64,000 nucleotides of DNA. Origin: an uncultured bacterium. Its GTDB lineage: Bacteria; Desulfobacterota; Deferrimicrobia; Deferrimicrobiales; Deferrimicrobiaceae. Below, in pieces: positions 7,346 to 49,368 of the stretch. A program made the position numbers and the translations under genes. The stretch's first letter is position 1. The number at the start of each line of letters is the position of its first letter. The DNA is taken from positions 211,862 through 275,861 of the forward strand of contig CAWHIM010000037.1 of NCBI GenBank assembly GCA_963829245.1. The letters run 5' to 3'. Under the pieces are notes generated by a model that had not been told where the DNA came from, made no database searches, and saw only the letters and a program-made list of their open reading frames with translations.

Positions 7346-7401
7346 GCCGGGGGGCGCTGGCAGCGTCGGATGCCGGCTTTGGCGGGAGGCCTTGCCGCGT
7401 G

Positions 7402-8046: not shown

Positions 8047-8179
8047 CTCCTGCAGACCTTATCATTGTCGCATGAATGCATCGTCCCCGACATGGAGGCC
8101 GGATGCCCCGGACTGGTGCATGATTTTTTTGAAAAGCCCCAATCCTCGGCATGGAAGGTCCCCGGTCCGGGGCGCGGGG

Positions 8180-8731: not shown

Positions 8732-8776
8732 GGGATCCTCCTTTCCGAAGCCGGATGATCGAACGATTCCAATTCT

Positions 8777-29543: not shown

Positions 29544-32329
29544 TTGCGATTCGGCAATACAATAAGGCCCATTCGATACGGGGGCGAAACGCTGGCTGAT
29601 ATCCTCCATTTCCTTCTGGTCCCTGACAAGTCTTCCGGAAGGAAGGTTCGCCGGGCGCTTGCATCCGATGGCGCCCGCTGCGGTGTCGTCGTCGGAACAT
29701 TCGGCGAGTTGGTGGATCAGTCGTGCAAAGCCTACCTCCTGAAACCCACCGAAACGGATTGGATGGAACGATTGGGCGAGGCGTCCCGAAAAGTAACGGA
29801 CGCTTTTTGGTCGGATAGCCTGAAGGCGGACCCGGACGGGTCCGTGGCGGTTCTCGACCGGGAGCTGCTACGGCTCCTTGCGGCCTTGGGGCCGGGGCGG
29901 GATCTCGCGCCGGTCGGAGAAATCCCGACTGTCCGACCGCGGGAAGCGGCACCTGGCGGATCTGTCGCGGCTTCACAAGGCGATGGGCCGCGATCTTCCC
30001 GATGGCCTCATGACGATCCGAAACTTGCTCGCGGCGGACGGGATCGAGGCCCTTCGGATCGTCAAGGTCTATCGTAAGGCCGGCTTTCCCTCTCTCTCCC
30101 CTTGGCAGGAAGCACTTCTCGGAAAACTCGCGACCGATGCCACGGGAGCGGGCGATCCGGAGCTTGAAACGATTCTCGCCGGTTGCCTGCTCCCTGGTCC
30201 CGCGGGAAAGGCAAAATCTGCCCTCAGACACCTCCAGGAAAACCTGTTTCGAACCGGTCCCTCGAAAGTCGCACTGGACGATTCCGTCACCTGCCTCGGC
30301 ATTAGGGATCTCCTCGAAGCGGCGGAGATCGCGGCGGGGATGATCCAAAGGGCGCTCGATGGCGACTCCCGGCTGGCAACATCGGAGATCGGCCTGCTTC
30401 TTCCGGGCGACGGATCCTGCGAAGATGCGGTGCGGGAAGTCTTCTCGAGGGCGGGGCTGCCGGTTTCCGGCCTGGAGGGGTCCCCCCGGCTTCGGAACCT
30501 CGGGGGCGAAGCGGTGTTCCTCTTCCTGGCCACCCGGCGACGGCCTGCTCCGGCGATGGCGCTTGCCGCCCTCTACTCCTCACCGCTGATGCCTTGGGAC
30601 GCTGCGACAGGGAACCGGCTCGCGATGCGGATCATGGACGGAAAATATCGTCCGGAAGCGCCGGCCGAAATGCCCGCCGAAGGGCGGCGGATGATGGATC
30701 TCCTGCGGGAAGAGCATGAGGCGCCAAGGTCCCTGGCGGAAGCGCTGAAGACCTTCGGATCCCTCCTGGCCGGTTCCGCTCCGATGGCTCGGCATGCCGA
30801 GGCGGCACGCGCCGCCCTCGAATCCCTCGGGGAAGCGATCCGGCGGATCAAGGGAAAAGATGTCCCTTGGGAGGAGCTCACCTCCCTCGTTCCGCAGGCG
30901 CCAGTCCCTTCCGGCGCGGGCCTCGAGCTGACCCGGGAAGGTGTGGCGCTCTTCCTCGAAAATGAGGAGCCTTGGCGGCCCGTCCGGATCCTCTTCGTCC
31001 TCGGTTTTTCGGGGGGACGATACCCGACAGGACCGGATCGTTCCCCGGTCTTCGATCCACCGGACACGGCCGCCCTGAAAGCGGATCACGGATACGCCCT
31101 CGAAACGCCGGAGGAGGGGATGGCGCGGCGGCGGGATCTTTTCCTCCGACAGTTGGGCGTGGTCAGCGATCGCGTCGTATTCCTTTCCCCGTTGCGGGAC
31201 GCGATGGGGGAGGATCTCGCTCCATCGGGGACCATCACCTTCATGTCCCGTCTCTATAAGGGGATCCAGTCGCCCGAAGATCTCTTGCTGATCCTGGAGC
31301 GGGAGTCGCACCGGTCGAGGGTCAAAGGTCTTGCGGAATGCTCCCCCGGCGGATCCTGTTCTCACCGGGGTTCTTGAGGTCCGGGATCCGGATCTGAAAA
31401 TCGACCTGCTGGTCGACGGGAGCGGGAAGCTCAGGCCGCTCTCGGCTTCCGGCTTCGATACCCTGATGGTTTCCCCCCTGGCCTGGTTCCTCCAACGGGA
31501 AAACATCGTCCCCCTGCGTTGGGCGCCGGAGGAACTCGACCCGATGACGAAGGGGACGCTCGCCCACGAGGTGTTCGAGAACCTGTTCCGCGCCGGGACT
31601 CCTCTGCCGACCGCGGCGAAGATCAAGTCCGCGGCCGGGAAACTTCTCAACGAAGCGATTCTGCGTCACGCACCGTTCCTGACGGGGTCCGAGTGGTACG
31701 TGGAGCGCCGAAACCTGCTGAACGACGTGGAAACGGCCGCGCTCCGCTGGAGGGACCTCCTTGATCGCAGCGGTGCGAACATTCTCGGCGTTGAAACCAG
31801 TCTCACCGGCGTGTTCGAGGGCGTGCCGATCCGAGGCCGGGCGGACCTTCTCCTGTCCCTCCCCTCGGGGCGCCTCTTCGTTGTCGACTACAAAAAGTCG
31901 ACGAGCCGGAGCCGCCGGAAGTGCATGGAGGAAGGATACGACCTCCAGGCCTCCCTCTATCGGCGGATGCTCCGCTTCGGCAAGGTGGCCGATGGGGGTG
32001 TGGAGGCGCTGGCCCGGGCGCTCAATGAAGGAGGAGAGATCGGGGTCCTTTATTACATGATGGACGACCAGCGGGCGCTGACCGACACGTCGGGCTGGAT
32101 CCCGCGCAGCGTCTCCGGGGTGCAGGAGCTGGGGAGCGAGATCTCGCGTAACGGCGAGGTCCTCGTTCGCGAGCGGATCCGGGCGCTCCGATCGGGCAAG
32201 ATCCCCCTCAACCGGGAGGATGACGCTGAAACCTTCGATAAGATCGGTGTGAAGACATACGCGCTGGAAGACAGCCCGCTGGTGATGCGGTTCGCCCACC
32301 CCGCGCCGGAAAAAGAGGACGTGGAATGA
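29544..32329 (+). pseudogene. AddB-like PD-(D/E)XK nuclease subunit, read in three frames (two apparent frameshifts or a split gene)
   Basis: ORFs 29544-30077, 29878-31377 and 31331-32329 step frames 0, +1, +2. The last part carries a RecB-type nuclease core (GVPIRGRADLLLSLPSGRLFVVDYKKS ... QASLY). Its stop overlaps the start of the downstream helicase (ATGA). Confidence 0.55.
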
Positions 32330-35300
32330 CGATCCCCCGGCTCACCGTCATCCCCGCCGGTGCAGGGTCCGGGAAGACGTACCGGATCCAGACGCAGCTT
32401 GCGGACTGGGTGGTCAACGGACTGGTAGCCCCCGAGCGCATTCTTGCGGTGACGTTCACGGAGGCCGCCGCGTCGGAGCTGAAGGAACGAATCCGGTTCG
32501 AGCTCGTGAAGCGCGACCGGATCGAGGATGCGCTGAAGCTCGAGGAGTCGTACATCTCCACGATCCACGGGTTCGGTTTGCGGCTTCTCACCGAGTTCGC
32601 CTTCGAGGGGGGGATCTCACCGTCCCCTCGACTCCTCAATGACGACGAACAGGGGTTCCTCATCCGACGGACGCTGGCGAAGACGGGGAAGGCGGATGCC
32701 GTCGCGATCAACCTGCGGAAGTTCGGATACCGATACGACCCGGTGAACAAGACGAGCGCCGAGGATGTCTTCCTCGATACGCTCCTGTCGTTGATCGACC
32801 GGCTCCGTTCGCTGGGCCGGAAAGGGGAAGATCCCGCGTTGGTCTCCGGGGCCGTGGATACGCTCCGACGGATCTACGGCCCGGTGGGAAACGCCGACGC
32901 ATTGAATCGTGCGCTCCACGGGTCCGTTGCACGCCTGCTGGAGCGATTCCCGGGAGACCTCTCCCCGGGGTTCGAGGGGAACGCCTCCGCGAGCGGGGAT
33001 TTCCGGGAGAACTTCCGGAGTTTGCGCCGAGCCGAGGATTTGGAAGAGGTGGCTTCCGATTGGAGCCTGTGGCTATCCCTGCGGAAGTTGCGCGTTTCGG
33101 GAAGAGGGGGAAAGGTCCCGCCGGGGTACGAGGATCTTGCGGGTGAGGTAATGTCCGCGGCAGGGGCGCTTCAAAAACACCCGGGGCCGCTGGCCGACGC
33201 GGAGTTGCACGTTTCGGCCCTCCTGGGGGCGAGCCAGGATTGCCTGGGAACCTACGGGGAGGAGAAGCGAAAGGCGAGTCTGGTCGATTTTCCGGACATG
33301 CTGGCGGGCGCCCACGAGATCCTCGCGAATCGTCCCGACGTCCTTGCGATCCTGAAAGGCCGTGTCGACTGCCTGGTGATCGACGAGTTCCAGGACACCA
33401 ACCCCCTCCAATTCTCTCTCCTGTGGAAGATCCGGGAGGCCGGGGTCCCTGCGCTGGTCGTCGGTGACGTCAAGCAGTCGATCATGGGGTTCCAGAATGC
33501 AGACCCACGCCTGTTCGAGCAGCTCGAGAAACAGTACCCGAAGGCCCGCGAGCCGCTGACCTTCAACTGGCGGGCTTCGGGGCCGCTGATGGAATGGGTC
33601 AACGCGGTGGGAGAAGGGCTGTTCGGGGCGGCGTACACGCGTCTGACGCCGAAGGCGGATTTCAAGAGCACGCTGGAATCCGCTCGAGGTCGTCGATGCC
33701 CCGAAATATATCCGTTCCGGTAGAAAGCGAGCCTCGTGGACGGCGGTGCGGATCAAGGCACTCCTGGAGGACGGGAAAAGCAAGGTCTGGGATAAGTACG
33801 CCAAAGTCTCGCGTCCCATTCGCGGAGGCGATCTCGCGCTCTTATGCCCCACTCGCAAACTGGTCGACCTGTATGCGGAGGTCTTGCGGGCGCTCGGGAT
33901 ACGCACTCGGATCGAACAGGACGGCTGGTACGGGTCCGGGGAGGTTCGGATTCTCCTTCACGCTCTCGAATACATCGCGGACGCCGACGACCGGCATGCC
34001 GCGCTCTACCTGGCGGTAACGGAACTCGGGAACCAAACCCTCGAGGCCGCGCTTGCTTCCCTCCGGCGCGGCGAGTCTTTGAAGGACCCGCTGCTGGAGA
34101 CGCTGGATCCGGTGAGGGCCGCGGCCGCGGACAAGACCATCGAGATATTGGTCTCCGAGGTGATCGTCGCGCTGGACCTCTACGGGAAGGCGGCCCTTTG
34201 GCCCGATGCCGCCCAGGCGCGTGCCAACATTCTTCGGTTTGAAGCGGAGGCGCGGGAGTTCCGGGAGGTGAACCGCCAGGTGCTCCTTTCGGGTGGATAT
34301 TACGGAACCGGGATCAAGACGTTCCTGTCATGGCTTGCCGCCAGGGTGGAGGAAAACGATGCGCAGCCGGATCCGCGGGTCGTGGACGAGGACGCGGTGA
34401 CGGTCACGACGTGGCACAGTTCCAAGGGGCTCGAATGGCCGGTCGTCGCGGTCTGTGGCATGCACCGGCAGATCAAGCCGCGCCTTCCCGACGTCTCGGT
34501 CACCTACGACGACTTCGATGATCTGGCGAATATCCTCCGGAAGGCCCGGGTCGAGATCGTCCCCGGCTTTGCGGCGGAGGAGACGACTGCGGCCTTTCTC
34601 GGACACCTCCAACCCGCCATGGAAGAGGAGGCGAGGCGGCTGCTCTACGTGGCCCTGACCCGCGCCCGGGAGAAGGTGATCGTCGAATGGCCGAGCCATC
34701 TCGCGGGGAAGGAGAAGTCGAATTACTGGTCCCTGCTCGTCGGGGCGGCGGGAATGGTCCTGGAGAAAGGCGGGATGCGGGTGAACGGAAAGGCGTTCCC
34801 TTCCGTCGTGAACCTGGCGGAAACGGACCTTGCCCCCTCGGTAGCCGCGTCCGAAGGGGAGCCGATCGCGCCGCTTTCCACGATCGGCCGGCGAGCGATC
34901 GCATATCGCTCTCTCCCGGTGAACCTGACGCCGGAGACGGTCACCCCCTCGCTGCTGCACGGGGATCCGGGGGAAGCTTCGCTCGCGGGACTTCTGCAGG
35001 AGGAAACGTACGGATCACCTTTCGAGACCGACCTGGAGGTCGTAGGGGCAGACCGCGGGCTGTTGCTGCATAAAAATTTCGAAATCCTGGGTGGCCGGCC
35101 CGGGCGCGTGGATCTCCTGGAAAGGGCAACCGGAGTGACGATCGACAAGAAGGGGTGCAGCCGGCTCGAAAGCGCGGTGGCCGATTTCGAGCGATGGTTG
35201 GTGGGGCGCTTTCAGCCGATCTCTGTTCGGCGTGAACTGCCTCTTCTGGGAGTGGACCGGCATGGGAGCGTGGTATCCGGCGTGGCCGACCTTCTCGTGG

Positions 35301-35506
35301 AAACGGAGGAAGGATACTGGATCCTCGACCATAAGTCCGACATCACGGACGACCGCGCCGCGCGCTTCGAGGCGTATCTCCCGCAGCTTCGTTGTTACGC
35401 CGGCCTCATTGATAAAGCGTTCCCCGGAAAGCCGGTGCTGGGGGTCGCGATCCATTGGATCACATATGGGAAGGTCAGCCTGCTTTCGGGGGAGAGGTCC
35501 GCATGA
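32326..35506 (+). pseudogene. AddA-like UvrD/REP helicase with C-terminal PD-(D/E)XK nuclease, one frameshift near 33672-33690
   Basis: Walker A AGAGSGKT, motif II LVIDEFQDTNP, VVGDVKQSIMGFQNA, and NWRASG. The frame breaks after PKADFKSTLE and resumes in +1 as LEVVDAPKYIRSG... The C-terminus has GVADLLVETEEGYWILDHKSD. Confidence 0.8.
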
Positions 35507-38450: not shown

Positions 38451-38696
38451 TTACTTCTTCTCCGCAGGCGCTGCCGCAGGCGCTGCCTCGGGGGCCTTCT
38501 CCATCTTCTCCGCCTTCTTCTTCGCCGCCTTCTTCTTTGCCGCCTTCTTTGCCGCCTTCTTCTTCGTCACCTTCTTCTCCGCCTTCTCGCTCTTCTCCGC
38601 CTTCGGCGGCATCACGGCGTTGTCGGCCGCGAACGCGAAGCCGGTGACCGACATGGCGAAAGCAACGGCGAACAGTACTGACAGCAGTTTCTTCAT
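38451..38696 (-). CDS. small secreted Lys/Ala-rich (histone-H1-like low-complexity) protein
   Basis: MKKLLSVLFAVAFAMSVTGFAFA signal peptide, then KAEKSEKAEKKVTKKKAAKKAAKKKAAKKKAEKMEKAPEAAPAAAPAEKK. Confidence 0.55.
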   Translation of the reverse strand: MKKLLSVLFAVAFAMSVTGFAFAADNAVMPPKAEKSEKAEKKVTKKKAAKKAAKKKAAKKKAEKMEKAPEAAPAAAPAEKK

Positions 38697-38931
38697 TTCT
38701 TTCCCTCCGGGGAGATTTGGAATCACGAATTGTCCTTCAAGGACAGTGCCAAACCGATAAGGTAGTTCAACTAATTAATAATACATATCTATTCCATGTA
38801 ACCGGAAATCGCATATTGCGGCGGGTTCCCCAAAAGAGGTACCACTTCCTCTTTTGGGTGCTATGGATGATCCTGACGCATGGGGCGGACGATATTGTTC
38901 GCCCTCCAGTTCATGAAAATATCCGTGTCGG

Positions 38932-39735
38932 CTATTTCATGGCTTTTCCCTTGAAAAAAGTATAAATAAAAGTGCCGTCCTCCTCCGCAGTCCTGTACAA
39001 GTCCCTTATCCCTTTGTTCCAATCTGCCTCTTCCATCATGCCCGAACGTATCGCCTGCTCCTTGACGCCTTCGACCATTGCAATAAATGTTTTTTTCGTA
39101 AATCCCTCGACCAGATCCGGCTTGCTTGAATCAACGTAGATCGTTCGGGGAGATACGCTGATGTCGTCGAAGTTTGAATATTTTAATAATGGGTAAAGCT
39201 GTCTCCCGATCAGTGGATTTCCTCCCATCCCTGCCTGGATGTCGTCCAGGCACCGGATCACCTTTCTCGCGTCTCGACTTTCGGGATGAAAGTACGTGGA
39301 ACCTTGATCGCCTTCGATCACGGTGATCGTTCCCCCCCGTTTCAATACCCTTCGAAGATAGAGCAATGCTTCCAGCGGGTTCGGAAGATGTTCCAGGACG
39401 AAGCAGAGGAATAAATGGTCGAAGCTGTCATCCTCATACGGCAGATGGAAGATGTCGCTTTGACGAAACGTAACGTTCGTGATGCCTTGCGATGAGACAC
39501 GCTCTTTTGCGGCGCGAAGAGATTCCTCCGATACATCGACCGCGGTAAAATTCGCGTTGGGGCTATTACGCGCCAGAATAATCGTTTGCGCTCCAACGCC
39601 GCACCCCGCTTCCAGCACATTGCTTCCTGCCGGATACACTGTATCGGAGTGCAGGATGCCTGCCAGCGTGGTTGCCTGGTCAACCAGTCTAACGCTTTCC
39701 CTTGCCGAGTAACCGTGCACGTAGTTCTTGTTCAT
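38932..39735 (-). CDS. class I SAM-dependent methyltransferase
   Basis: ATG at 39735, in AT-rich DNA. Motif I VLEAGCGVGAQT, plus DHLFLCFVLEHLPNP and LKRGGTITVIE. Confidence 0.85.
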   Translation of the reverse strand: MNKNYVHGYSARESVRLVDQATTLAGILHSDTVYPAGSNVLEAGCGVGAQTIILARNSPNANFTAVDVSEESLRAAKERVSSQGITNVTFRQSDIFHLPYEDDSFDHLFLCFVLEHLPNPLEALLYLRRVLKRGGTITVIEGDQGSTYFHPESRDARKVIRCLDDIQAGMGGNPLIGRQLYPLLKYSNFDDISVSPRTIYVDSSKPDLVEGFTKKTFIAMVEGVKEQAIRSGMMEEADWNKGIRDLYRTAEEDGTFIYTFFKGKAMK

Positions 39736-39764
39736 CGAAAGATCGCTTTCTCCATCACGGCCCG

Positions 39765-40586
39765 CTACCGGTTCAGCAGGGAGGTCATCCGTTCCAGGTG
39801 TTTCCGTTCTTCCCGGGAGAGCGCCAGGAAAACCTCTCTGGACCGTTCGTCCGCGACGGCCCTCCCCATCTTGATATAACGGTCCAGGGCGTTCGCCTCC
39901 ATCGCGATGGAGAGTTCGAGGATCTCCTCCAGCGTCTTTCCTTTGGCCCACGCCAGCGTCTCTTTCAGCGGAGCTCCTCCCTCCAGAAATTCACCTGCCT
40001 CCATCCCTTCCAGGTGCGCGGGGTTTCCGCCCTTTCCGGAGACCCGGGCGTGAAGTTCACGGAGGGTTTCCTTGTGCCGCTCCTCCGCCTGGCCCATCGA
40101 CCGGAAGATCGAAGCGGCTTCCTCCTCTTTCAGGTCCTGGGAAATGCGCTCATAGAAGACGCGGTTCCCCTCCTCGAGAGCGAAGGATAGCGAAACCAGC
40201 TCTTCGGCCCGTGACGCCCGGGAGAAGTACGCAAGGCCTGCTTCATAAATCCCTTCCGCCACGACGCCGTTCCAGGCATCTATCCCTCCCGCCATGCTGT
40301 GTACCTGCGAAAAGCCGGCCTCCGAAAGCGTTGCCGCAGCGGCACGGCTGCGGACCCCGGCCTTTCAATAGGTGATGGTCGGCTTGGACCGGTCGAGGTC
40401 GCCGAGGCGATCCGTCAGCTCCGCCATCGGAATGAGCCGGGCTCCCGGAAGATGCCCGCTTTCGTACTCTCCCGGTTGTCGCACATCGACGAGATTGTAG
40501 GATTCGGCACTCTTTTCCCGAAGGAAAGCGCGGACCTCCCCGGCGGTCCATGTGGAAACGGGTTTGAAATAGTCGAAGATTCCCAA
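39765..40586 (-). CDS. selenocysteine-containing rhodanese fused to a ferritin/rubrerythrin-like di-iron domain (273 aa, Sec at codon 74, TGA 40367..40365)
   Basis: ORFs 40586->40365 and 40295->39765 are in frame. Read-through gives ...SKPTITY-U-KAGVRSRAAAATLSEAGFSQVHSMAGGIDAW, so the rhodanese active-site loop C-[RK]-x-G-x-R-[ST] has Cys replaced by TGA. The C-terminal domain has E...EERH...E...EERKH ligand spacing. Confidence 0.7.
40334..40353 (-). promoter_or_regulatory. putative bacterial SECIS hairpin for the rhodanese gene
   Basis: UGA + 11 nt + CCGCAGC-CGUGCC-GCUGCGG: a perfect 7-bp stem with a 6-nt loop containing GU. Confidence 0.5.
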
Positions 40587-40613
40587 GGCAAGCCCTCCTT
40601 CCTCCGGTTTCGT

Positions 40614-41748
40614 TCATTCCTCCCGCGATTCGCGGAGTTCTCCGGATACCTGGAATTTTCGCATGAATCTCAAGTCGAGGTAGTTCTTCAAGCGGAAGGC
40701 AAGCCGACCGCTCCAGACGATCTCTTTCCGCCGGAAAAGGCCCCTGCGATCTCCCAGGTTCAAGATCAGGAGATAGTCGCCCCCGGGATCGAATCGTTGA
40801 AGAGGCCTCCCGTCGAGAAACGCCGAAAGGTTTTGGTGGAGGGGGCGGTTCTGGCGCACGGCATAGACGCCGACCCGGGCCAGGGGGGATCCCGCCAGGG
40901 AGATGCAATCGCCGCCCCCGAACAGTTCAGGGTGGTCCACGCACTGCAGGTAATCGTTGACCAGCAGCCCCCCGTCCTCTCCCGTTGGAAGGCCCGAATT
41001 CCGAAAGAGCGGTGACGGGCTGATCCCGGTCGCGACGAACACCATGTCTCCCTCGAGAATCGCGCCGTTTTCCAACCGGATCCCTCCGTTGGCAATCGAT
41101 TCCGCGGAAACCCCCTCGATCGATTCGACCCCCCACCGGGCGAGGGCTCCTCGTGCCAGCGTACGCGCCTTCTCGGGGAAATCGCCAAGCACGTTCGACC
41201 GGGATACGAGAGTGATCCTTCCGATCCTGTCCGTTTCCTTCGCAAGATGCCCCAGATTTGCGGCAATTTCGACGGCCGCGGATCCTCCGCCCAGCACGAT
41301 GACGCGGATCCTCTTTCCGGCGTGGGCTTCCAGTATCTTCCTTCGCGCGGCAAGGATGTTCTCGATCGGCTTGACGGGAAAAACGTTATCGCCGGAGGGA
41401 TGGAGGAGATCCAATGGGACCGCGCTCCCCGTGTTGAAGGAGGCGGCATCGTACCGGACCTCGGATCCCGAACCGAGAACCAGGGCGCGCCGGACGGGAT
41501 CCACCAGGACCACGCGATCCTCGATGAACGTTGCCCCCCGGTCTTGCGCCATCTTTTTCACGTGGAAGCGGGCCTCGGCGGGCCGGTATATGCCCGGAGA
41601 GCAGGCCGGGACCCATTCCCGAATAGTAGTGATACGGGGAAGGGCCGATCAACGTGACGCGGTGCCCGGCCCGCACGGTATCCCGCAGGTTTGTCAGCGC
41701 CGTAAGGTGGGCGTGGCCGCCGCCCACGAATACCAAGTGCTTCGGCAT
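40614..41748 (-). pseudogene. FAD-dependent pyridine-nucleotide-disulfide oxidoreductase with one frameshift near 41585-41596
   Basis: The N-terminal part reads MPKHLVFVGGGHAHLTAL...RVTLIGPSPYHYYSGMGPGLLSGH in one frame. The continuation YRPAEARFHVKKMAQDRGATFIEDRVVLVD...VIVLGGGSAAVEIA...GGGDC is in another. Confidence 0.75.
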
Positions 41749-41970
41749 CTTCCCCTTTCCCGGTTCGAGGCCCCGTTGTTCTTACGGGTGACCCCCGAAA
41801 GGCGAATCCTGCAAGCTATCCTGGCTGAAAAATTTCGAGACGACTTTCTTCGCCCGCGGCGCCGGCGTTTCCATCAGCGATAAGAAACGCGAACAGTGGG
41901 CGACATTGGTAAACGGTTCCGGTGCTGATGGCACCCGAATTCCACCTCTCGAGTGGAACGGATGACCATG

Positions 41971-43077
41971 TCAACGATGTCGATGTGGCGCGAAAGCCTC
42001 CGGCACCTTGATCCGGGAAATCGTATATGTGCGGACATCCTCCTCGGGTTCGTCCCCCACAGTGGATGTCAGCGGAAGAGCGAGATTCGTCACGAACGCG
42101 CTGCCTTTTGAAAAAACGATGCTTGCCGGAAAGAGGAGTCCCCGGGGCGCACCATTTTCCCGGATGCCGAGGAAGTCGCCGAGGATTGCGACCACCCGCC
42201 CATTCCCGTTCAGCACCACGATTTCGTCAGCCTGGTTCGCAGCGACCCAGAGGTGTCCCGAAGTGTCGAAGGCGATTCCGTCAGCCCCGTTGATGCTTTC
42301 GGCGAAAACATCCACTTTTTTCGTCCCGAGATCCATCCGGAGTATCCGGTCGTCCCCGGTGTTGGCGATGAAAAGGCTCTTCTCGTCGGAGCTGAAAGCG
42401 ATCCCGTTTGCCCCAAAGGGGGGGAATCCCGTTGTCGCCAACAGCGCGTCGTGCGCGAACGTGGTGACGGGACAACTCACCGAGCAAATGTCGACGTGCT
42501 CGATCTGAAAGATCGCTCCCTGGAACGAATCGGAGACGAACAAGGAGCCATTGCTGTCGAAAGCCATTCCGTTCGGTGCGGAGGCATTGTTGCCGAAGTG
42601 GATCCCATCCTGGCTTCCATCCGGGTTGTCCACGGTCCGGTCCGGCGGGGCGCCGATGTGCGGAAGGAGGGCCACGTCCTCGATCGGGGTACCTTCATGA
42701 AAATCTGCGGGGATGCGCTGGATCTTCGATTGGGAACCCACCAGGTCCCCCGTGTTGCAGATGTACACCTTGCCGTCCGCCAGGTTGAATGCAAGACCCA
42801 GTAACGGTGTCCCCCCGAAATCCTTTTGCGAGACCAGCTTTCCGTTCGCCTTGAATCGAAGGAGCTTGTTGTTCCCATTGGAATCGAACGTGGCCACGAA
42901 GATTTCCCCGGTATCGGGATTGACTGCTATCCCTTCGGGGAACCGTATGCCATCGGGAAGCTGCACGAACTCCTTGGCGGCTAACCGGTCCACGATGAGC
43001 CCGCTGTCACCCCAGGCAACGATTGCCGATGCCGATAGCACAATGGATACCACCAGGCAAGATATCGTTTTTCGCAT
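41971..43077 (-). CDS. secreted beta-propeller protein (SMP-30/gluconolactonase/LRE-like)
   Basis: 368 aa with a signal peptide. Repeated PEGIAV / PNGMAFD / ANGIAFS / ADGIAFD blade motifs. Confidence 0.65.
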   Translation of the reverse strand: MRKTISCLVVSIVLSASAIVAWGDSGLIVDRLAAKEFVQLPDGIRFPEGIAVNPDTGEIFVATFDSNGNNKLLRFKANGKLVSQKDFGGTPLLGLAFNLADGKVYICNTGDLVGSQSKIQRIPADFHEGTPIEDVALLPHIGAPPDRTVDNPDGSQDGIHFGNNASAPNGMAFDSNGSLFVSDSFQGAIFQIEHVDICSVSCPVTTFAHDALLATTGFPPFGANGIAFSSDEKSLFIANTGDDRILRMDLGTKKVDVFAESINGADGIAFDTSGHLWVAANQADEIVVLNGNGRVVAILGDFLGIRENGAPRGLLFPASIVFSKGSAFVTNLALPLTSTVGDEPEEDVRTYTISRIKVPEAFAPHRHR

Positions 43078-43329
43078 GTTCTCCCCCCGATCGGATAAAA
43101 ATGTTCACCCACGTCAGACCATTCGACGCGCCGCCCCGAAGGTTGGTTTCTTGAAGTTGTCTTATTTGAAAGAGGATTCGATCCATATGCTCGATCTGTG
43201 ACTGTCTTGTGACCGGATTTCCTGCTTCCCCGTTGGACGAGCGGGAGATCCGGAGGATGGAATCGTCGCCACCCGCGGGGTGGTCTTCCTCCCGGTCCCC
43301 TTCGATCAGGCGCCTTGCGATGATCGGTT

Positions 43330-45054
43330 TTACGGAGACGAGGAACACCCCGGGGTCGAGGAACCCGCGGGATGGGTGGGGCGGGCCGCCTGTTCCGGCA
43401 CCGCCGTCTTCACGGGGTTGAACTGCTTCCACGTCGTGTAGCCGCCGCTCAGGTTCCATGCGCGGAACCCTCGCTGCCTCAGGATCCGTTCCGCGATATA
43501 TCCCCGGATGCCGACGGCGCAGTAGACGACGATGTCGCGGTCCCGCGGGAGCTCGGAGAGGCGCTCACGGATCTTCCCCAGCGGCATGAGCCTGGAGCCG
43601 GGAAGCGCGCCTGCTTTATGTTCCGCCGGCTCGCGGACATCGAGCAACAGGGAGTCCTGTGGAAGAGCGTCCGCATGGACCACCTGAGTTTCGCCGCGCA
43701 GAACGTTGGACGCCACGAACCCGGCGAAGTTGATCGGATCCTTGGCGGAACCGTACGGGGGAGCGTAGGCAAGTTCCAATTCCTGAAGGTCGTACACGGT
43801 CAACCCGGCCTGCATTGCGGTGGCGAGCACGTCGATCCGCTTGTCCACGCCGTCACGCCCGACGATCTGGGCGCCGAGGATCCGCCCTTCCCGCGTGAAC
43901 AGCAGCTTGAGATGCATCATCCGCGCGCCCGGATAATAAGTGGCGTGCGAATATGGATGGAGGTATGCCTTTACGTGCGCCACGCCCGCCTTCCGGAGAG
44001 CCTTTTCCGTCGCGCCGGTGCAGGCTGCCGTCATATCGAACACCTTGACCACAGAGGTGCCGAACGTGGTTTTGTACTCCCGCTCCGCGCCGAAGACGTT
44101 GTCGGCCGAGATTCGCCCCTGGCGGTTCGCCGGGCCGGCAAGAGGGATTTGGGACGAAAGGCCGAGAGCGTCCGTAACCTGGATGGCGTCGCCGATCGCG
44201 TAAATATCCGGGTGGCTTGTCTGCAGGCGGGTGTTGACGACGATTCCTCCCCGCTCTCCGATCGCAAGGCCGGCCGATTTCGCCAGGGACGTGTTCGGCC
44301 GGACGCCGATGGCAAAAACGACGAGATCCGCGGGGAGTTCCCTCCCGTCGCCAAGTCCGACGACGACCTCCGGAGTTCCGGAACCGTCCCGTTCCGCGAG
44401 GCGGCGAACGGCCGTCACCGTGCTCCCGAGCAGCACCTTGACGCCGTTTCGCTCCAGCTCCGCGATCAAAGGTTGCGCCATCTCGGGGTCCAGCGGAGGC
44501 ATGACCTGCGGCAGCATCTCCACCAGTGTCACTTCGACATTGCGCAGGCGAAGGTTCTCGGCCAGCTCCAGCCCCAGAAACCCGCCCCCCACCACGACGG
44601 CGCGTTGTATGCCGGCATCCACCCGCGCCTTGATCCGGTCCATGTCCGGCATCGTCCATAACATCATGACCGCCGGGTCGTCCGCCCCCGGGACATCGGG
44701 TCGGATCGGGCTTGCGCCAGTGGAGAGGATCAGCTTGTCGTAGCTTTCCGTGTACGTATTGCCTGTCGCCCGGTCCAGGATGGAGAGCGTGTGGGCCGCG
44801 GGCTCTACGGCTGTGACCTCGTGGCGTGTGCGCACATCCACGCCGGTTCGCGCATTGAACCGTTCCGGTGTCATGACCAGCAGGCTGTTGCGCCTTGGAA
44901 TGGCCCCACCCACGTGATACGGCAGGCCGCAGTTGGCAAACGATACGTACTCGCCCCGCTCGAACAGGACGATCTCCGCGGTTTCGTCCAGACGGCGCGC
45001 TCTTGCCGCAGCGCTGGCTCCCCCCGCCACTCCGCCGATGATGGCAACTTTCAT
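43330..45054 (-). CDS. CoA-disulfide reductase / NADH-dependent persulfide reductase with C-terminal rhodanese domain
   Basis: ATG 45054. MKVAIIGGVAGGASAAARARRL, redox Cys in SFANCGLPY, a second Rossmann motif VVVGGGFLGLELA, and a C-terminal rhodanese loop VVYCAVGIRG. Confidence 0.85.
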   Translation of the reverse strand: MKVAIIGGVAGGASAAARARRLDETAEIVLFERGEYVSFANCGLPYHVGGAIPRRNSLLVMTPERFNARTGVDVRTRHEVTAVEPAAHTLSILDRATGNTYTESYDKLILSTGASPIRPDVPGADDPAVMMLWTMPDMDRIKARVDAGIQRAVVVGGGFLGLELAENLRLRNVEVTLVEMLPQVMPPLDPEMAQPLIAELERNGVKVLLGSTVTAVRRLAERDGSGTPEVVVGLGDGRELPADLVVFAIGVRPNTSLAKSAGLAIGERGGIVVNTRLQTSHPDIYAIGDAIQVTDALGLSSQIPLAGPANRQGRISADNVFGAEREYKTTFGTSVVKVFDMTAACTGATEKALRKAGVAHVKAYLHPYSHATYYPGARMMHLKLLFTREGRILGAQIVGRDGVDKRIDVLATAMQAGLTVYDLQELELAYAPPYGSAKDPINFAGFVASNVLRGETQVVHADALPQDSLLLDVREPAEHKAGALPGSRLMPLGKIRERLSELPRDRDIVVYCAVGIRGYIAERILRQRGFRAWNLSGGYTTWKQFNPVKTAVPEQAARPTHPAGSSTPGCSSSP

Positions 45055-45563
45055 GGTGCCCCTCTTTCTATTGTGATTCGCCGGTGGTGTTTCAGGCATT
45101 CGAACGCGCCCCCAGTATATCCGTCCCGGCGGAAGGCGTGGGATGATAGGAGGGTGCATCCCACTGCCGCATGCGGCAAAGGAGATCTCCTCCGCCTCCG
45201 ACCCGTCTTTTCGTTTGGCGGGAGGCGATGACTGAAATTCGGGTTGTACCGGCAGGCCCCGGGCCGCTGAAGACGGAGGGGAGTGGCTCCAAAGGAGGTG
45301 ATGATAATCTCGACGTACTGTTGAAATTTTAAACTGATAATCTTCAAGAGATTCAACGCGTGGCAGGTAGCCTCCAAGAAGTGTAGAGAATATACACACA
45401 TTTCGGTTTTCCATCCCCCCTGGGATATGGTTGGTCATTTGCTATGGTTTCCCTTAATTAACAATATGTTATCTAATGTATGCGGGGGGTGGATCGAGAC
45501 TGGCATGGCTGATGCTGTAGATATTGATGCGGGAAGTGGGCTTCGCAGAGGGAGGTGGGAACG

Positions 45564-45644
45564 ATGGGGTACCTGGTGATCGGAATCGCGTACATCGTTC
45601 TGGCGGTGGCCGCCGTGGTGAAACCGCGGGCAGGGCATGCGTAA
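45564..45644 (+). CDS. possible 26-aa hydrophobic peptide upstream of the GcvH-like genes
   Basis: GGAGGTGGGAACG-ATG, then MGYLVIGIAYIVLAVAAVVKPRAGHA-TAA. Good SD spacing and a single TM-like helix. Too short to validate by eye. Confidence 0.3.
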   Translation: MGYLVIGIAYIVLAVAAVVKPRAGHA

Positions 45645-45701
45645 AACGTTCCGGGGAGTCGAGCGGATGAAACGAACCATTAGAGAAGAAGGGGTGCAGA
45701 G

Positions 45702-46412
45702 ATGAAAGAGACAAGGTGCCCTTTTCTGGAAACGAAAACCGTGACGTTCTGCAAGGCGTTCCCGTCGAAGATGATCCCGGTGAACCGGCTGTCCTCCTCG
45801 GGAGGCCTCTGCAACTCCTGCAACTTCGAGGAGTGCTCCCTGTACTGCGAGGTCCGGGGTGGCGGCATGGGGATGGAGCACGTTCGCGGATTCCATCTCA
45901 AGTCCGAGTACTACTACCACCCCAAGCACTTGTGGGTCGCCCCGTACGACGGAGAAGAGGGCGAGGCCCGGGTGGGGATCGACGACTTTTCGTCCCGGCT
46001 GATCGGAAGGGTCGACCGCGCATCGGTGCCCGCCGTCGGCGTGGCGGTGAAAGAGAACCACGTCTGCTTCCTCCTCCACTCCGGCCCGCGGACCGTCCAC
46101 CTGGTTTCACCCGCCGACGGGGTCATCAAGGCCGTCAACCCGAAGGTTGCCGCGGATCCCTCCATCCTCAACGACGATCCGTACTCCGAAGGCTGGATCT
46201 TCTCCATGCGGCTCAAAGGGGACGCGGTGAAGGGGTTGTACCACGAGAACGTCGCCCGGAAGTGGTTCGAAAGCGAGGTCGAACGGTTGCAGCGGGTCTT
46301 CTCTTCCGATTTGGGGATGCTGGCGACGGACGGGGGGGAGGCGCTCACGGATATCAGCAGCCGGTTGAACGACGCGCAATGGGGAAAGATCGTCAGTCAA
46401 TTTCTAGGGTAA
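45702..46412 (+). CDS. GcvH-like (glycine-cleavage H-fold) protein with Cys-rich N-terminus, no lipoyl-lysine
   Basis: N-terminus CPFLETKTVTFC...LCNSCNFEECSLYC. H-fold block HLWV...ARVGIDDFSSRLIGRVDRASVPAVG...VSPADGVIKAVNPKV..DP..NDDPYSEGWIF. The position of the ESVK lysine reads HSGP. Confidence 0.7.
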   Translation: MKETRCPFLETKTVTFCKAFPSKMIPVNRLSSSGGLCNSCNFEECSLYCEVRGGGMGMEHVRGFHLKSEYYYHPKHLWVAPYDGEEGEARVGIDDFSSRLIGRVDRASVPAVGVAVKENHVCFLLHSGPRTVHLVSPADGVIKAVNPKVAADPSILNDDPYSEGWIFSMRLKGDAVKGLYHENVARKWFESEVERLQRVFSSDLGMLATDGGEALTDISSRLNDAQWGKIVSQFLG

Positions 46413-46428
46413 GAGCAGGAGGTGCGCC

Positions 46429-47106
46429 ATGGTAGTCCTTCTCGTCGCAATCACGGTTCTCGCATGCATCGGGGTGGATCTGGCGCTCCGGCGGAGGGAA
46501 AAGGCGGCGGCGGAAGCCCGGTCCGTCGTCCGGGAGCCGGCCGCGCTGTTCCCTTCCCATGCGGCCCAGGAACTTCCCGGCGGCCTGTTCGTCCACGGCG
46601 GCCACACCTGGGCGAAGCTCGATTCCTCCGGCTCCGTACAGGTGGGCCTGGACGGTTTCGCGCAGGGAATCCTCGGAAGGGTCGACCGGTTCGAGCTTCC
46701 CGCGGACGGGGCGACGCTTCGCCAGGGCGAGCCGGCGTTCGCCGCCCTCCAGTCGGGCAAGCGGATCGAGTTCGTGTCCCCCGTCGACGGCGTCGTTTGC
46801 GCGGTGAATGAACGGATCAACGTCGACCCGGCGGCGGCGCGGAAGGAGCCCTACGAGAAGGGATGGGCGTTCATGCTCCGGCCGTCCAACCTCTCCCGGG
46901 ACCTGAAGAAGCTCCGGATCGGCGCGGAAGCCGCGGCGTGGCTGGAAAGGGAAGCCAGGAGTTTCACCGAGTTCCTCTCCCTGCACCGGGCGGTGCCCGC
47001 GGAAGTGGGGGCCACCCTGGCGGACGGAGGGATTCATGCCGAGGGAATCATGGAGACGATGGACGGAGAGATCCTGCAGATCGCGATCCGGAAATATTTT
47101 CGCTGA
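46429..47106 (+). CDS. membrane-anchored GcvH-like protein (paralog 2)
   Basis: AGGAGG before the ATG. N-terminal TM helix MVVLLVAITVLACIGV. H-fold block GHTWAKL...VQVGLDGFAQGILGRVDRFELPADG...VSPVDGVVCAVNERI...EPYEKGWAF. Confidence 0.7.
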   Translation: MVVLLVAITVLACIGVDLALRRREKAAAEARSVVREPAALFPSHAAQELPGGLFVHGGHTWAKLDSSGSVQVGLDGFAQGILGRVDRFELPADGATLRQGEPAFAALQSGKRIEFVSPVDGVVCAVNERINVDPAAARKEPYEKGWAFMLRPSNLSRDLKKLRIGAEAAAWLEREARSFTEFLSLHRAVPAEVGATLADGGIHAEGIMETMDGEILQIAIRKYFR

Positions 47107-47181
47107 CGTCGGATGCCCGTGTTCGGCGAGGCGCATGAGGGTCGTAGAGGAAGAAACGGCGGAAGACGCGGAGGTAGTGAG

Positions 47182-47892
47182 ATGGAAGGATTCAGCCTCG
47201 TAGACATCTATTCGACGAAGGGGATCGAATACCTGATCGCCACGGTATTCTTCTTCGGGTTCCTGGCCCTGCAGCGGTACATCCTGACGTCCGCTCCAGG
47301 GCGGGGAAAGAACCGGGATTGGCATGCCGGGCTTCCGTCCTGGTTCCGCGTTCCCGAGGGGTACGGCTTTCACCAGGGGCATACCTGGATGAAGGTGGAC
47401 CTTCTGAGCCCCGGCCGCCGGAGGTTGGTGAAGGTCGGGCTGGACGACTTCGCGCAGAAGCTCATCGGCAAGGTGGATGCCGTCGTGCTCCCCGCCGTCG
47501 GCTCCCGCCTGACGCAGGGGGACAAGGGGTGGAGCCTCATGGTCGATTCCGAGGCCATCCCGATGCTGTCGCCGGTGGATGGCGAGGTCGTGGCGGTGAA
47601 CCAGGCGGTTCTCCGGTCCCCCGGGATCCTGAGTCGGGATCCGTACGGGGAGGGCTGGCTGCTCAAGGTGAAATCCGACAGGATCGCGGCGGACAGCCGG
47701 AACCTGTTATCGGGGAAGGTGGCCCGGGCCTGGATGGAGACCTCGCTGGAAAACCTCCACCCGACCCGCCACGAAACCCTGGGGCCGGTGATGCAGGACG
47801 GCGGTCTGCCGCTGGAAGGGATCGCGCGGATCCTTGGCGGCGACCAATGGGCGGATCTGGCGAAGACGCATCTGCTGACGGACGTGGAGTAA
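47182..47892 (+). CDS. membrane-anchored GcvH-like protein (paralog 3)
   Basis: GGAGGT before ATG 47182. TM helix IEYLIATVFFFGFLAL. H-fold block GHTWMKV...VKVGLDDFAQKLIGKVDAVVLPAVG...LSPVDGEVVAVNQAV...DPYGEGWLLKV. The lysine position reads DS. Confidence 0.7.
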   Translation: MEGFSLVDIYSTKGIEYLIATVFFFGFLALQRYILTSAPGRGKNRDWHAGLPSWFRVPEGYGFHQGHTWMKVDLLSPGRRRLVKVGLDDFAQKLIGKVDAVVLPAVGSRLTQGDKGWSLMVDSEAIPMLSPVDGEVVAVNQAVLRSPGILSRDPYGEGWLLKVKSDRIAADSRNLLSGKVARAWMETSLENLHPTRHETLGPVMQDGGLPLEGIARILGGDQWADLAKTHLLTDVE

Positions 47893-48054
47893 CGCGGACC
47901 GGGGGGCGCTGCCGTAGTTTGTGCGGAGGGTGCCCCCCCGAACTTCCTCCATCGGCACGAAGGGAATCCCGCCGGTAGCCGAACGTACCGCAAATCCCGT
48001 GCAATCAGCCGCCTTGAAATGGAAATGACCTTGCCTCCGAATCGCGATCGGTGC

Positions 48055-49254
48055 TCATTTCCTCGAGGAAAGGTATTCCTGGAGCCGGTCCAGCGCCGTG
48101 TCGATATTTTCGATCGAGTTCGCGTAAGAGAAGCGGAGATACCCCTGCGCACCCTCGCCGAAGTCGATTCCGGGGGTGACGGCCACCCCCGTAGCCTCGA
48201 GGATCTCCATCGCGAGCCTCAGCGAATCCGGTTGGATGGAACGTGCGTCGGCCAGCACGTAGAATGCCCCCTGGGGGATTCTGCGAACGCCCAGGCCCAG
48301 CGCGCGAAGCCGTTCGACGATGTGACGGCGCCGCCGGTCGTAGGCGGCCCGCATGATTTCCACGTCCCGTCGCCCTTCCTTCAGGACGGCGATTCCGGCC
48401 CGCTGGACGAAATGATTCGCGCTGATCATGAAATTCTGGTGCAGGCTCTGCAGAACCCGCACGCTGGACCGGGGGACGATCAGATATCCCAGCCGCCATC
48501 CCGTCATGGCGAAGGTCTTGGAGAATCCCCCGAAGACAAAGGCGTCCGGATCGAACTCGAGGGCGCTGCGTTCCTCTCCCTCGTAGGTCAGGCCATGGTA
48601 CACCTCGTCGGAGATCAAGGGGATCGGCAGGGAAGCCAGCTCTTCGAGCCAGGCGGAGGGCAGAACCGAGCCGGCGGGGTTGGAAGGGGAGTTGACGAGA
48701 ACCCCGCGCGTCCGCGGCGTGATCCGACGGCGGACTTCCTCGGGGCGCGGCTGGAACCCGTCCTCCTCCCGGGTCCGGAGAAAGCAGGGGGTGCCTCCCG
48801 GGAAGCGGATGAAGTTGGGGTAGCAGGAGTAGCAAGGGTCGGAAAGGATGATCTCGTCGCCTTTGTCGAGCAGTGCCGAGAAGAGAAGGAACATGAGCGG
48901 GCTGGTGCCGGAGGAGACGATGATCCGCCCGGAGTCGACAGCGATGCCGTATCTCCGGGCATAATGCTCCGCGATCGCCTCACGCAGCTCCGGCAGACCG
49001 AGGGAATGGGTATAGGTGGTCTCCCCTTGCCGAATCGCTCGGATCGCGGCCTCGGAAGCCACCGCCGGCGTCGGGAAATCGGGCTCCCCTACGCACAGGT
49101 AAACGATGTCTCTCCCCCCGGCTTCCAGCTCCTTGGCCCGCTCGAGAACCTCCATCGCGAGGAATGGGGTAACCGCCTCGGCGCGGCGGGAGAAGCGCGG
49201 GTTCGTCTTGACGTTCTTCATTCGCCACAAGATAGCATAGTCCGGATTGGGCAC
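48055..49254 (-). CDS. class I/II pyridoxal-phosphate aminotransferase (aspartate/aromatic type)
   Basis: GEPDFPTP, SNPAGSV, and FSKTFAMTGWRLGY with the PLP lysine. The start may instead be the internal MKNVK at 49221. Confidence 0.9.
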   Translation of the reverse strand: MPNPDYAILWRMKNVKTNPRFSRRAEAVTPFLAMEVLERAKELEAGGRDIVYLCVGEPDFPTPAVASEAAIRAIRQGETTYTHSLGLPELREAIAEHYARRYGIAVDSGRIIVSSGTSPLMFLLFSALLDKGDEIILSDPCYSCYPNFIRFPGGTPCFLRTREEDGFQPRPEEVRRRITPRTRGVLVNSPSNPAGSVLPSAWLEELASLPIPLISDEVYHGLTYEGEERSALEFDPDAFVFGGFSKTFAMTGWRLGYLIVPRSSVRVLQSLHQNFMISANHFVQRAGIAVLKEGRRDVEIMRAAYDRRRRHIVERLRALGLGVRRIPQGAFYVLADARSIQPDSLRLAMEILEATGVAVTPGIDFGEGAQGYLRFSYANSIENIDTALDRLQEYLSSRK

Positions 49255-49368
49255 CCGCTGCGGATCGGATATTTCGCAGTAGACGCCGGCTTCCCGCCCG
49301 GGTCGCAGGAGGGGATTCCCGCACCTCGGGTTGGACCGATGACGGGGTGGGGCTCAGAGAGATTTTGT

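Follow-up and report, generated by a model that had tools for sequence, protein, structure and literature searches.

The described systems closest to the genes considered here are of several kinds. The LbpA proteins are the lipoate-binding proteins of the sHdr sulfur-oxidation system (PMC6067878); they have a GcvH fold, occur as several paralogues and are associated with redox enzymes. Rhodaneses with selenocysteine (Sec) in a UxxG motif are already in lists of prokaryotic selenoproteomes, as "rhodanese-related sulfurtransferase" forms 2 and 4 (PMC13188914, PMC1088965). Ndh-SelD fusion proteins carry an NDH-2-like domain N-terminal to SelD (PMC2398784, PMC4561486), and in the family of Npsr, CoADR-RHD and CoA-persulfide reductase (PDB codes 3NTA, 3ICR, and 8A56) a flavoprotein is fused to a rhodanese, with Npsr reducing persulfide. 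Finally, the Hmc and Nhc membrane complexes of Desulfovibrio (HmcABCDEF and NhcABCD) include DVU0533, "Hmc operon protein 4," which is HmcD (PMC4265775). Proteins related to these systems are encoded within 8 kb of one another in a 64-kb stretch of DNA (the window) from a Deferrimicrobiaceae genome of the candidate phylum MBNT15. An initial annotation of this DNA proposed these genes as a candidate sulfur/selenium relay, with GcvH-like proteins as possible carriers or adaptors. Our analysis indicates, with a probability of roughly 0.78, that the units in the 8-kb stretch are independent and juxtaposed in a lineage-specific way, rather than parts of one relay.

All of the components proposed for the island are present in the window, as assessed by a listing of open reading frames (ORFs) and by Pfam and NCBIfam scans. 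In order of position, they are the following:

39765-40586, minus strand: N-terminal rhodanese (active-site loop Y-U-K-A-G-V-R-S, in which U is Sec) fused to a C-terminal four-helix di-iron (rubrerythrin/ferritin-like) domain, with a TTG start
40614-41748, minus strand: NDH-2/FSP1-like flavin adenine dinucleotide (FAD) flavoprotein with the motif GGGHAH...YSGMGPG (Pfam Pyr_redox_2, 7.7e-30)
41971-43077, minus strand: secreted beta-propeller of the six-bladed type, SMP-30/gluconolactonase/NHL family (Pfam SGL/NHL; signal peptide predicted from the sequence)
43330-45054, minus strand: Npsr/CoAPR-type CoA-disulfide/persulfide reductase with a C-terminal rhodanese (CoADR-Rhd), 574 residues, starting MKVAIIGG
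45564-45644, plus strand: hydrophobic single-helix peptide of 26 residues, MGYLVIGIAYIVLAVAAVVKPRAGHA, the first gene of its operon
45702-46412, plus strand: GcvH1, a soluble GcvH fold (Pfam GCV_H) with four invariant N-terminal cysteines and a C-terminal helical extension containing DGG
46429-47106, plus strand: GcvH2, an N-terminal transmembrane helix followed by a GcvH fold (Pfam GCV_H) and the DGG extension
47182-47892, plus strand: GcvH3, a putatively HmcD-like N-terminal transmembrane helix followed by a GcvH fold (GCV_H) and the DGG extension, starting MEGFSL as in its relatives

These genes constitute three or four independent units that adjoin one another only in the genome of the window. 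Two of the units are conserved modules, previously undescribed in the literature that we searched: the pair formed by the flavoprotein and the rhodanese-rubrerythrin (Rhd::Rbr) fusion (unit A), and a GcvH-like/Hmc-like operon to which the peptide and the GcvH trio belong (unit B). CoADR-Rhd (unit C) is an ordinary stand-alone NADH-dependent persulfide/CoA-persulfide reductase of the Npsr type, and the secreted propeller is unit D.

This division rests on a comparison of gene neighborhoods. Positions 36 to 52 kb of the window were aligned by blastn with loci fetched from related Deferrimicrobiaceae (MBNT15) genomes and metagenomes (L001 to L134). The alignments delimited three blocks, and a candidate transcription stop adjoins the first of them:

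39761 to 41774-41791: block A, from just past the stop codon of the fusion to just upstream of the flavoprotein start (blastn edges)
41838-41855, minus strand: terminator-like hairpin with a T-run, between the propeller and flavoprotein genes, adjoining the block A boundary
45251-45290 to 47898-48015: block B, from the point that matches the end of the regulator gene in canonical GcvH loci to just past GcvH3 (blastn edges)
48049-49264: block C, containing an aminotransferase gene (blastn edges)

DNA homology ends at the edges of these blocks. The segment that carries the propeller and CoADR-Rhd genes (41792-45250) had no DNA match in L001 to L134, and neither did the methyltransferase gene that follows the fusion, where the homology of the relatives stops at 39761. 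We also searched the window proteins by tblastn against 47 loci obtained from an alignment of GcvH1 homologues in species-representative genomes. Nearly all of these are metagenome-assembled genomes (MAGs) named Deferrimicrobiaceae, Deferrimicrobium, or "Deltaproteobacteria bacterium," and four have other or discordant bin names. The GcvH trio was always found together, and none of the 47 loci, covering up to 10 kb per side, contained CoADR-Rhd or the propeller. Homologue look-ups and a metagenome scan with the Rhd::Rbr query supplied 80 more loci, and CoADR-Rhd, the propeller, the methyltransferase and the GcvH genes were absent from all 80 of these metagenome loci. Among the 67 Rhd::Rbr loci that we scored, the 66 besides the window had no CoADR-Rhd, propeller or methyltransferase, and the trio was nearby in only one (L014). 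Correspondingly, CoADR-Rhd orthologues from three related genomes (90, 87, and 71% identity) are stand-alone genes beside transporters, helicases and similar genes. The neighborhood as a whole is thus not conserved in related genomes, which is the outcome that the initial annotation had named as speaking against an island. What is kept is the pairing of the flavoprotein with the Sec-rhodanese; the trio, CoADR-Rhd and the propeller do not travel with that pair.

Some observations weigh against this separation. Blocks A and B are less than 5 kb apart in L014 as well, in another order and orientation, and in a third genome they are 52 kb apart on one contig (L001 and L024). The nearness in L014, together with the 52-kb case, points to a regional proximity in this clade that exceeds the random. 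Selection can also give rise to functional clustering such as that seen here, where a single strand carries two flavoproteins and two rhodanese modules in less than 6 kb, and many of the loci compared, which reached at most 10 kb per side, are short. Blocks A, B, and C are close together but permuted in L014, and A and C are close in L001. We read this shared proximity as regional synteny with repeated local rearrangement and not as selection for joint function, while acknowledging that it is the main evidence against pure chance. A repeat search of 39 to 49.5 kb found short repeats at chance level only, with no scars of insertion sequences or integration at the block edges. Treating the stretch as a juxtaposition keeps a chance neighborhood from being filed as a new sulfur/selenium system.

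The proposal of a single relay would have all eight or nine genes act together: the rhodaneses would take up sulfane sulfur or selenium, the flavoproteins would reduce it, and the GcvH-fold proteins would serve as carrier arms in the manner of LbpA. The family assignments of the two rhodanese modules and of CoADR-Rhd fit such a scheme, as does the nearness of blocks A and B in two genomes (the window and L014), and a fused protein from an Anaerolineae MAG, described below, indicates that GcvH-fold trios can work with Hdr-type redox enzymes. Against these points stand the absence of CoADR-Rhd and the propeller from all 47 trio loci, the near-complete absence of the other components from the remaining Rhd::Rbr loci, and the stand-alone position of the CoADR-Rhd orthologues. 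In addition, two of the GcvH-fold proteins have no lipoyl lysine and the third has a displaced lysine, the trio has respiratory and regulatory genes as its conserved partners, and the window ORFs that were scanned include no Hdr, lipoate ligase, selD, selA, selB, or ybbB. The neighborhood comparison therefore largely refutes the relay, which we consider very improbable. A part of the original idea survives: by family, a role in sulfur or selenium chemistry is plausible for three genes (the Sec-rhodanese fusion, its flavoprotein partner and the Npsr-type CoADR-Rhd), although not as an integrated relay.

A more restricted form of coupling, confined to this one genome, involves the gene on the far side of the fusion:

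38932-39735, minus strand: class I S-adenosylmethionine-dependent methyltransferase (Pfam Methyltransf_31/11/25), 29 bp downstream of the rhodanese fusion

In the window, this gene is probably cotranscribed with the fusion. The reductase, propeller, flavoprotein, fusion and methyltransferase could in principle make up a recent cluster for the detoxification of sulfide, polysulfide or selenium, with reduction followed by methylation and with the GcvH trio unrelated. All five genes lie on the same strand, and the gaps between the flavoprotein, fusion and methyltransferase genes are only 27 to 29 bp. The G+C content at third codon positions is also alike (0.72 to 0.74) in the four of the five genes scored, versus 0.83 to 0.85 in the GcvH genes, and the methyltransferase is weakly similar to ArsM-type models. 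However, gaps of 222 and 252 bp and the terminator-like hairpin separate the CoADR-Rhd, propeller and flavoprotein genes, and the flavoprotein gene of the window is frameshifted. The NCBIfam models of UbiE type match the methyltransferase as well as or better than those of ArsM, and the arrangement occurs in no other genome examined. We consider a local detoxification cluster improbable and retain the juxtaposition of independent units as the preferred reading, in which the plus-strand genes, starting after a 650-bp gap from CoADR-Rhd, stand apart from the minus-strand genes.

The first of the two conserved modules is the flavoprotein and Rhd::Rbr pair. The flavoprotein gene is the immediate neighbor of the fusion gene in 25 of the 67 fusion loci, and in 10 of the 27 loci with flanks of 1.2 kb or more on each side. 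Its usual position is upstream of the fusion, with some cases downstream, and the pairing reaches down to fusion proteins of 33 to 35% identity. Among the well-flanked loci, the partner was present for 5 of 7 Sec forms and for 5 of 19 Cys forms, in a sample that is small and made up of loci that are not independent. Clustering of the neighboring ORFs at 19 pair loci revealed no third recurrent gene, SelD included. The flavoprotein and the Rhd::Rbr fusion are, then, a conserved two-gene unit.

The fusion protein combines domains that are individually familiar (Pfam Rhodanese, 2.4e-20; Rubrerythrin, 1.8e-12), and no NCBIfam model matched it at or above cutoff. Its gene contains two features that bear on Sec incorporation:

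40365-40367, minus strand: in-frame TGA (Sec) codon, aligned with an invariant cysteine
40310-40365, minus strand: stem-loop resembling a selenocysteine insertion sequence (SECIS), directly after the TGA (fold -29.6 kcal/mol, z -2.1)

In an alignment of 12 full-length homologues, the TGA column corresponds to the invariant cysteine of a Y-C-x-x-G-V-R-S loop. Across the 67 family loci, this position is TGA in 35, Cys in 31 and Ser in 1, and the TGA is retained in the relatives L001, L002, and L014. Dozens of close relatives have been called elsewhere as a truncated downstream ORF of 176 residues, which is a signature of an unrecognized Sec codon. Judged by these sequence patterns, the fusion is very probably a real selenoprotein. 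The core of the stem-loop (CCGCAGC-CGUGCC-GCUGCGG, about 40334-40353) has G23 and U24 in its loop when numbering starts at the U of UGA, a spacing that we take to match that of the Escherichia coli fdhF SECIS. This core is identical in L001, L002, and L014, and the lower stem has partly compensatory changes; no Rfam model matched the hairpin. Because the stretch is also coding and the z score is only -2.1, its assignment as a bacterial SECIS is suggestive only.

Apart from the Sec, the fusion protein contains no cysteine. In 13 sequences, the di-iron ligands E138, E168, E230, E260, and H263 are invariant and H171 is nearly so, giving an E, ExxH, E, ExxH pattern. A rubredoxin-like Cys4 iron domain is absent from the fusion, and the rhodanese takes the place of this second domain. 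Like the UxxG rhodanese selenoproteins on record, the protein has a single rhodanese domain with Sec in place of the catalytic cysteine, has Cys homologues in other species, and has a function that is only predicted. It differs from them in its fusion to a di-iron rubrerythrin/ferritin-like domain and in its recurrent flavoprotein partner. The literature that we searched contained no mention of a rhodanese fused to a rubrerythrin-type domain, and we regard its architecture as new within a predicted selenoprotein family that is already known, and its conserved partner as new too.

For the flavoprotein, TIGR03169 ("Nterm_to_SelD") is by far the best NCBIfam model (266.3 bits, 4.9e-79), with a score below the 310-bit cutoff. 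The protein is the same kind of NDH-2-like domain as that of the Ndh-SelD fusions, but it is neither fused nor adjacent to SelD and has a rhodanese::di-iron protein as its partner instead. Among solved structures, FSP1/AIFM2, NDH-2, and rubredoxin reductase come nearest to it. The initial annotation had labeled it a disulfide oxidoreductase of the GGGHAH...YSGM.PG type. A flavoprotein with this motif is indeed encoded, but only one cysteine is invariant in 22 orthologues, and that one lies in the FGGGDC FAD motif. The family therefore lacks a conserved redox-active cysteine pair or CxxxxC motif, leaving disulfide chemistry as a family label. In the window, the gene is interrupted:

41593-41595, minus strand: GGG run where five relatives have GG, the extra G producing a +1 frameshift that splits the flavoprotein gene

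The frameshift is seen in pairwise alignments to intact genes in L001, L055, L056, L014, and L058, and the extra G is either a homopolymer sequencing error or the mark of a recent real pseudogene.

How the pair might work can be sketched by analogy with Npsr, in which a flavoprotein fused to a rhodanese reduces persulfide, and with the Ndh-SelD fusions. NAD(P)H would reduce the FAD, which would pass electrons to the rhodanese::di-iron partner. There, the single Sec (Cys elsewhere) could carry sulfur or selenium as a persulfide or perselenide, or could act as a peroxidatic residue, with the reduced di-iron site adjacent to it. Overall, NAD(P)H would drive the reduction of a chalcogen or peroxide species. 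A role in persulfide or perselenide reduction is possible, and we propose it with some reservation. An alternative is that the pair is an NAD(P)H peroxidase for oxidative stress, in which the flavoprotein would act as a rubredoxin reductase, the di-iron site would reduce H2O2 and a Sec relay would replace the rubredoxin domain. Rubrerythrins are the usual peroxidases of anaerobes, and the host lineages of the pair are anaerobic. The conserved rubrerythrin-type E/ExxH/E/ExxH site and the resemblance of the flavoprotein, with no conserved cysteine pair, to rubredoxin/ferredoxin reductases and NDH-2 are likewise consistent with a peroxidase. The rhodanese loop, in contrast, is of the six-residue sulfurtransferase type, CxxGxR(S/T), and selenium metabolism is suggested by the closest curated family of the flavoprotein, namely the domain fused to SelD (PMC2398784, PMC4561486). 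In our estimation, a peroxidase role is only slightly less likely than persulfide or perselenide reduction, each being below even odds. The two-gene unit is a widespread cassette that could finally reveal what the common Ndh-SelD fusions do.

The second conserved module became apparent when the GcvH trio was placed among its relatives. In 32 of the 47 loci, the order is GcvH1, GcvH2, a 2.2-kb insert and GcvH3. The first gene of the insert encodes an iron-sulfur protein with four 4Fe-4S clusters and a twin-arginine translocation (TAT) signal, for which the best NCBIfam model is HmcB (362 bits; cutoff, 420), followed by HybA. The second encodes an NrfD-family membrane protein, for which the best model is HmcC (430 bits; cutoff, 550), followed by HybB. 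A sensor kinase and a sigma-54 response regulator are encoded upstream in about 35 loci, and in L040, where these genes span 6127-9665, an ORF for an HExxH peptidase of M54 (archaemetzincin-like) type lies between them. The canonical operon is therefore the kinase, in some cases the M54 peptidase, and the sigma-54 regulator, followed by a promoter, the peptide, GcvH1, GcvH2, the HmcB-like and HmcC-like proteins, and GcvH3. Two CxxCH motifs lie in the N-terminal part of the L040 kinase, a part that is presumably periplasmic.

The window retains the regulatory region of this operon:

45251-45515, plus strand: block B upstream regulatory region, whose homologue in canonical loci comes after the gene for the sigma-54 regulator (blastn edges)
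45501-45515, plus strand: sigma-54-type -24/-12 element, TGGCAT-N5-ATGC, at a position conserved in relatives

Of 46 related loci, 30 have the corresponding sequence, TGGCAC-N5-TTGC, at a fixed distance from GcvH1 (about -200 or -148 relative to its ATG). By itself, the sigma-54 motif is not enriched in the window (43 matches versus 46 expected), and the element gains weight only because its position is conserved in related loci. The 26-residue peptide and its Shine-Dalgarno context are conserved almost throughout the 46 related loci, even where GcvH1 identity falls to 52%. No homologue of HmcB, HmcC, the kinase or the regulator is encoded in the 64 kb of the window. The trio is thus a paralogous, stripped copy of the canonical operon, which has kept the promoter region, the peptide and the three GcvH genes and has lost the genes for the HmcB-like and HmcC-like proteins, the kinase and the regulator. 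Since the upstream region is retained, this orphan copy is probably still driven by the same regulator.

Short copies, in which GcvH3 directly follows GcvH2, occur in the window and in L008, L014, L024, and L026. Genomes with a short copy also hold a canonical one (for example, L008 with L009, L014 with L015, and L023 with L024 and L026), and the short copies adjoin unrelated genes, among them those for CFA synthase, an SRAP peptidase, MetE, and pyridoxal phosphate-dependent Cys/Met enzymes. These genomes hold two or three operon copies each, in which the HmcB/C genes may be missing, separate GcvH2 from GcvH3, follow GcvH3, or stand upstream on the opposite strand. Such variety within single Deferrimicrobiaceae genomes indicates repeated duplication and rearrangement.

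The GcvH-like proteins had been compared to the lipoate carriers of sHdr. A predicted model of GcvH1 superimposes on the H-protein structure 1ONL with a target TM-score of 0.90, and Foldseek returned H-proteins only; the Cys-rich N terminus was not modeled (predicted local distance difference test score below 50). The three proteins score 65 to 75 bits against the NCBIfam GcvH models, below the cutoffs of 116 to 117. At the position of the lipoyl lysine in solved H-proteins, GcvH1 has Pro, GcvH2 has Gly and GcvH3 has Ser. GcvH1 orthologues keep a C-x-L-L-H-S-G-x-R-T hairpin without a lipoyl lysine, and GcvH3 orthologues have no basic residue at the hairpin. GcvH2 has an invariant lysine, Lys111, one residue past the canonical position; because it is the first residue after the hairpin turn in the predicted model, GcvH2 may still be lipoylated. 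All three proteins share an HxxHxW motif and a C-terminal helical extension of about 55 residues with an invariant DGG. The positive charges that follow the N-terminal transmembrane helices of GcvH2 and GcvH3 suggest that their GcvH domains should face the cytoplasm.

The trio thus resembles LbpA in its fold, in its several paralogues and in its association with redox enzymes, but it differs in the absence (GcvH1 and GcvH3) or one-residue displacement (GcvH2) of the hairpin-tip lysine and in its extra regions, N-terminal (Cys4 or transmembrane) and C-terminal (DGG helical). The partners differ as well: neither the window nor the canonical loci have gcvT or gcvP, or sHdr and lipoate ligase genes, as neighbors of the trio, and its conserved neighbors (the sensor kinase, the sigma-54 regulator and the HmcB/HmcC-like subunits) include no Hdr or sulfur genes. 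Neither the lipoyl sites nor the partners support the analogy with sHdr carriers.

A profile search of 1.84 billion representative sequences returned 429 clusters (50% identity) at an E value of 1e-30 or lower. Most of the best 150 of these 429 clusters match from about profile position 50 to 65 through the extension. Named members come from Thermodesulfobacteriota, Aminicenantes/Acidobacteriota, candidate division B38, and Anaerolineae. One of them, the 1,391-residue protein P0405 from an Anaerolineae MAG, joins three tandem GCV_H domains to a GlcD-like FAD oxidase, a 4Fe-4S dicluster domain and two HdrD-type CCG domains, and another family member is a receiver-domain fusion. At locus L139, a GcvH-like gene is followed by genes for cytochrome c3, an iron-sulfur protein, NrfD, a protein with DVU_0533 and GCV_H domains, and another GcvH-like protein, beside an M54 peptidase, a sigma-54 regulator and a kinase. 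Locus L140 has the canonical order, and L141 has a kinase, an M54 peptidase, a sigma-54 regulator and a single long GcvH-like gene. The arrangement of kinase, M54 peptidase, sigma-54 regulator and GcvH-like gene therefore recurs in several lineages (L040, L139, L140, and L141). The kinase of L141 has a sensory domain resembling Fe-hydrogenase.

Like the Hmc and Nhc complexes, the canonical operon encodes a TAT-exported HmcB-like iron-sulfur protein and an HmcC-like NrfD protein, and close relatives of GcvH3 carry an N-terminal helix resembling that of HmcD (DVU_0533). The full length of GcvH3 aligns at 46% identity with P0383, the L139 protein, which carries precomputed hits to PF28260 (DVU_0533) and GCV_H. 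A direct Pfam scan of GcvH3 gave no PF28260 hit; the hit in P0383 covers the homologous N terminus. Unlike Hmc and Nhc, the operon lacks a multihaem cytochrome (no multihaem cytochrome c gene was found in the Deferrimicrobiaceae operons), HmcE, and HmcF, and has the three GcvH-fold proteins and the 26-residue peptide instead. Its HmcB-like and HmcC-like proteins score below the curated cutoffs, and the copy in the window has neither. The literature that we searched held nothing relevant on a GcvH-like/Hmc-like operon, which we regard as a new variant of the Hmc/Nhc/HybAB-type membrane module.

By analogy with these complexes, the three GcvH-fold proteins and the peptide would sit on the cytoplasmic side of a quinone-interacting membrane complex of Hmc/Nhc type, as subunits or adaptors and not as lipoate carriers. 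Our tentative proposal, to which we give slightly less than even odds, is that the trio, with its DGG extension, and the peptide form a class, so far undescribed, of subunits or adaptors that are tethered to the membrane, carry no lipoyl group and serve NrfD/HmcC-type complexes (and, in the fused Anaerolineae protein, a GlcD/HdrD-type enzyme), that they are switched on by the kinase, M54 peptidase and sigma-54 regulator in several phyla, and that the trio of the window is an orphan still answering to that regulator. If true, a major class of anaerobic respiratory complexes would gain a new accessory in the form of GcvH-fold proteins without a lipoyl lysine.

The remaining two units are less distinctive. 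CoADR-Rhd matches 3NTA over its full length (residues 2 to 544; E value, 5.5e-178), with both catalytic cysteines aligned (SFANC... and VVYCAVGIRG). TIGR03385, which covers the CoADR part only, scores 458.7 bits (1.8e-137), under its cutoff of 578.8 bits. A 702-residue reading of the ORF was rejected, as read-through from upstream accounts for its first 128 residues. The family is very large, and the window protein is a plain member of it with no notable difference; it has a Pro/Ser-rich C-terminal tail of 30 residues. The propeller had no match in any fetched locus up to L134 and showed no link to other genes in the genomes examined. The possibility that it is a relative of the NHL protein encoded beside canonical GcvH loci was rejected, as tblastn gave no match.

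Downstream of GcvH3 lies a gene that served as a marker of synteny and is part of no module:

48055-49254, minus strand: class I/II aminotransferase of block C (Pfam and NCBIfam scans)

An IclR regulator gene comes after it. Scans for tRNA genes and for Rfam families at gathering thresholds found none in the window, and a scan for sigma-70 promoters found none at 38.5 to 48.3 kb.

Elsewhere in the window, the G+C content is about 0.62, with a dip to 0.51 at 24 to 26 kb. A gene for a multihaem cytochrome c (25408-26775, plus strand), with hits to cytochrome c7/c3 and MtrC/MtrF-like domains, adjoins this 2-kb low-G+C stretch. Four consecutive ORFs at 29878-35506 (plus strand), with PD-(D/E)XK nuclease and UvrD helicase domains, resemble a split AddAB-type helicase-nuclease, and the splits may be further frameshifts in the assembly. 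Finally, a small secreted protein with a long Lys/Ala-rich tail, KKAAKKAAKKKAAKKKAEK, is encoded at 38451-38726 (minus strand), between the methyltransferase and other small secreted proteins.

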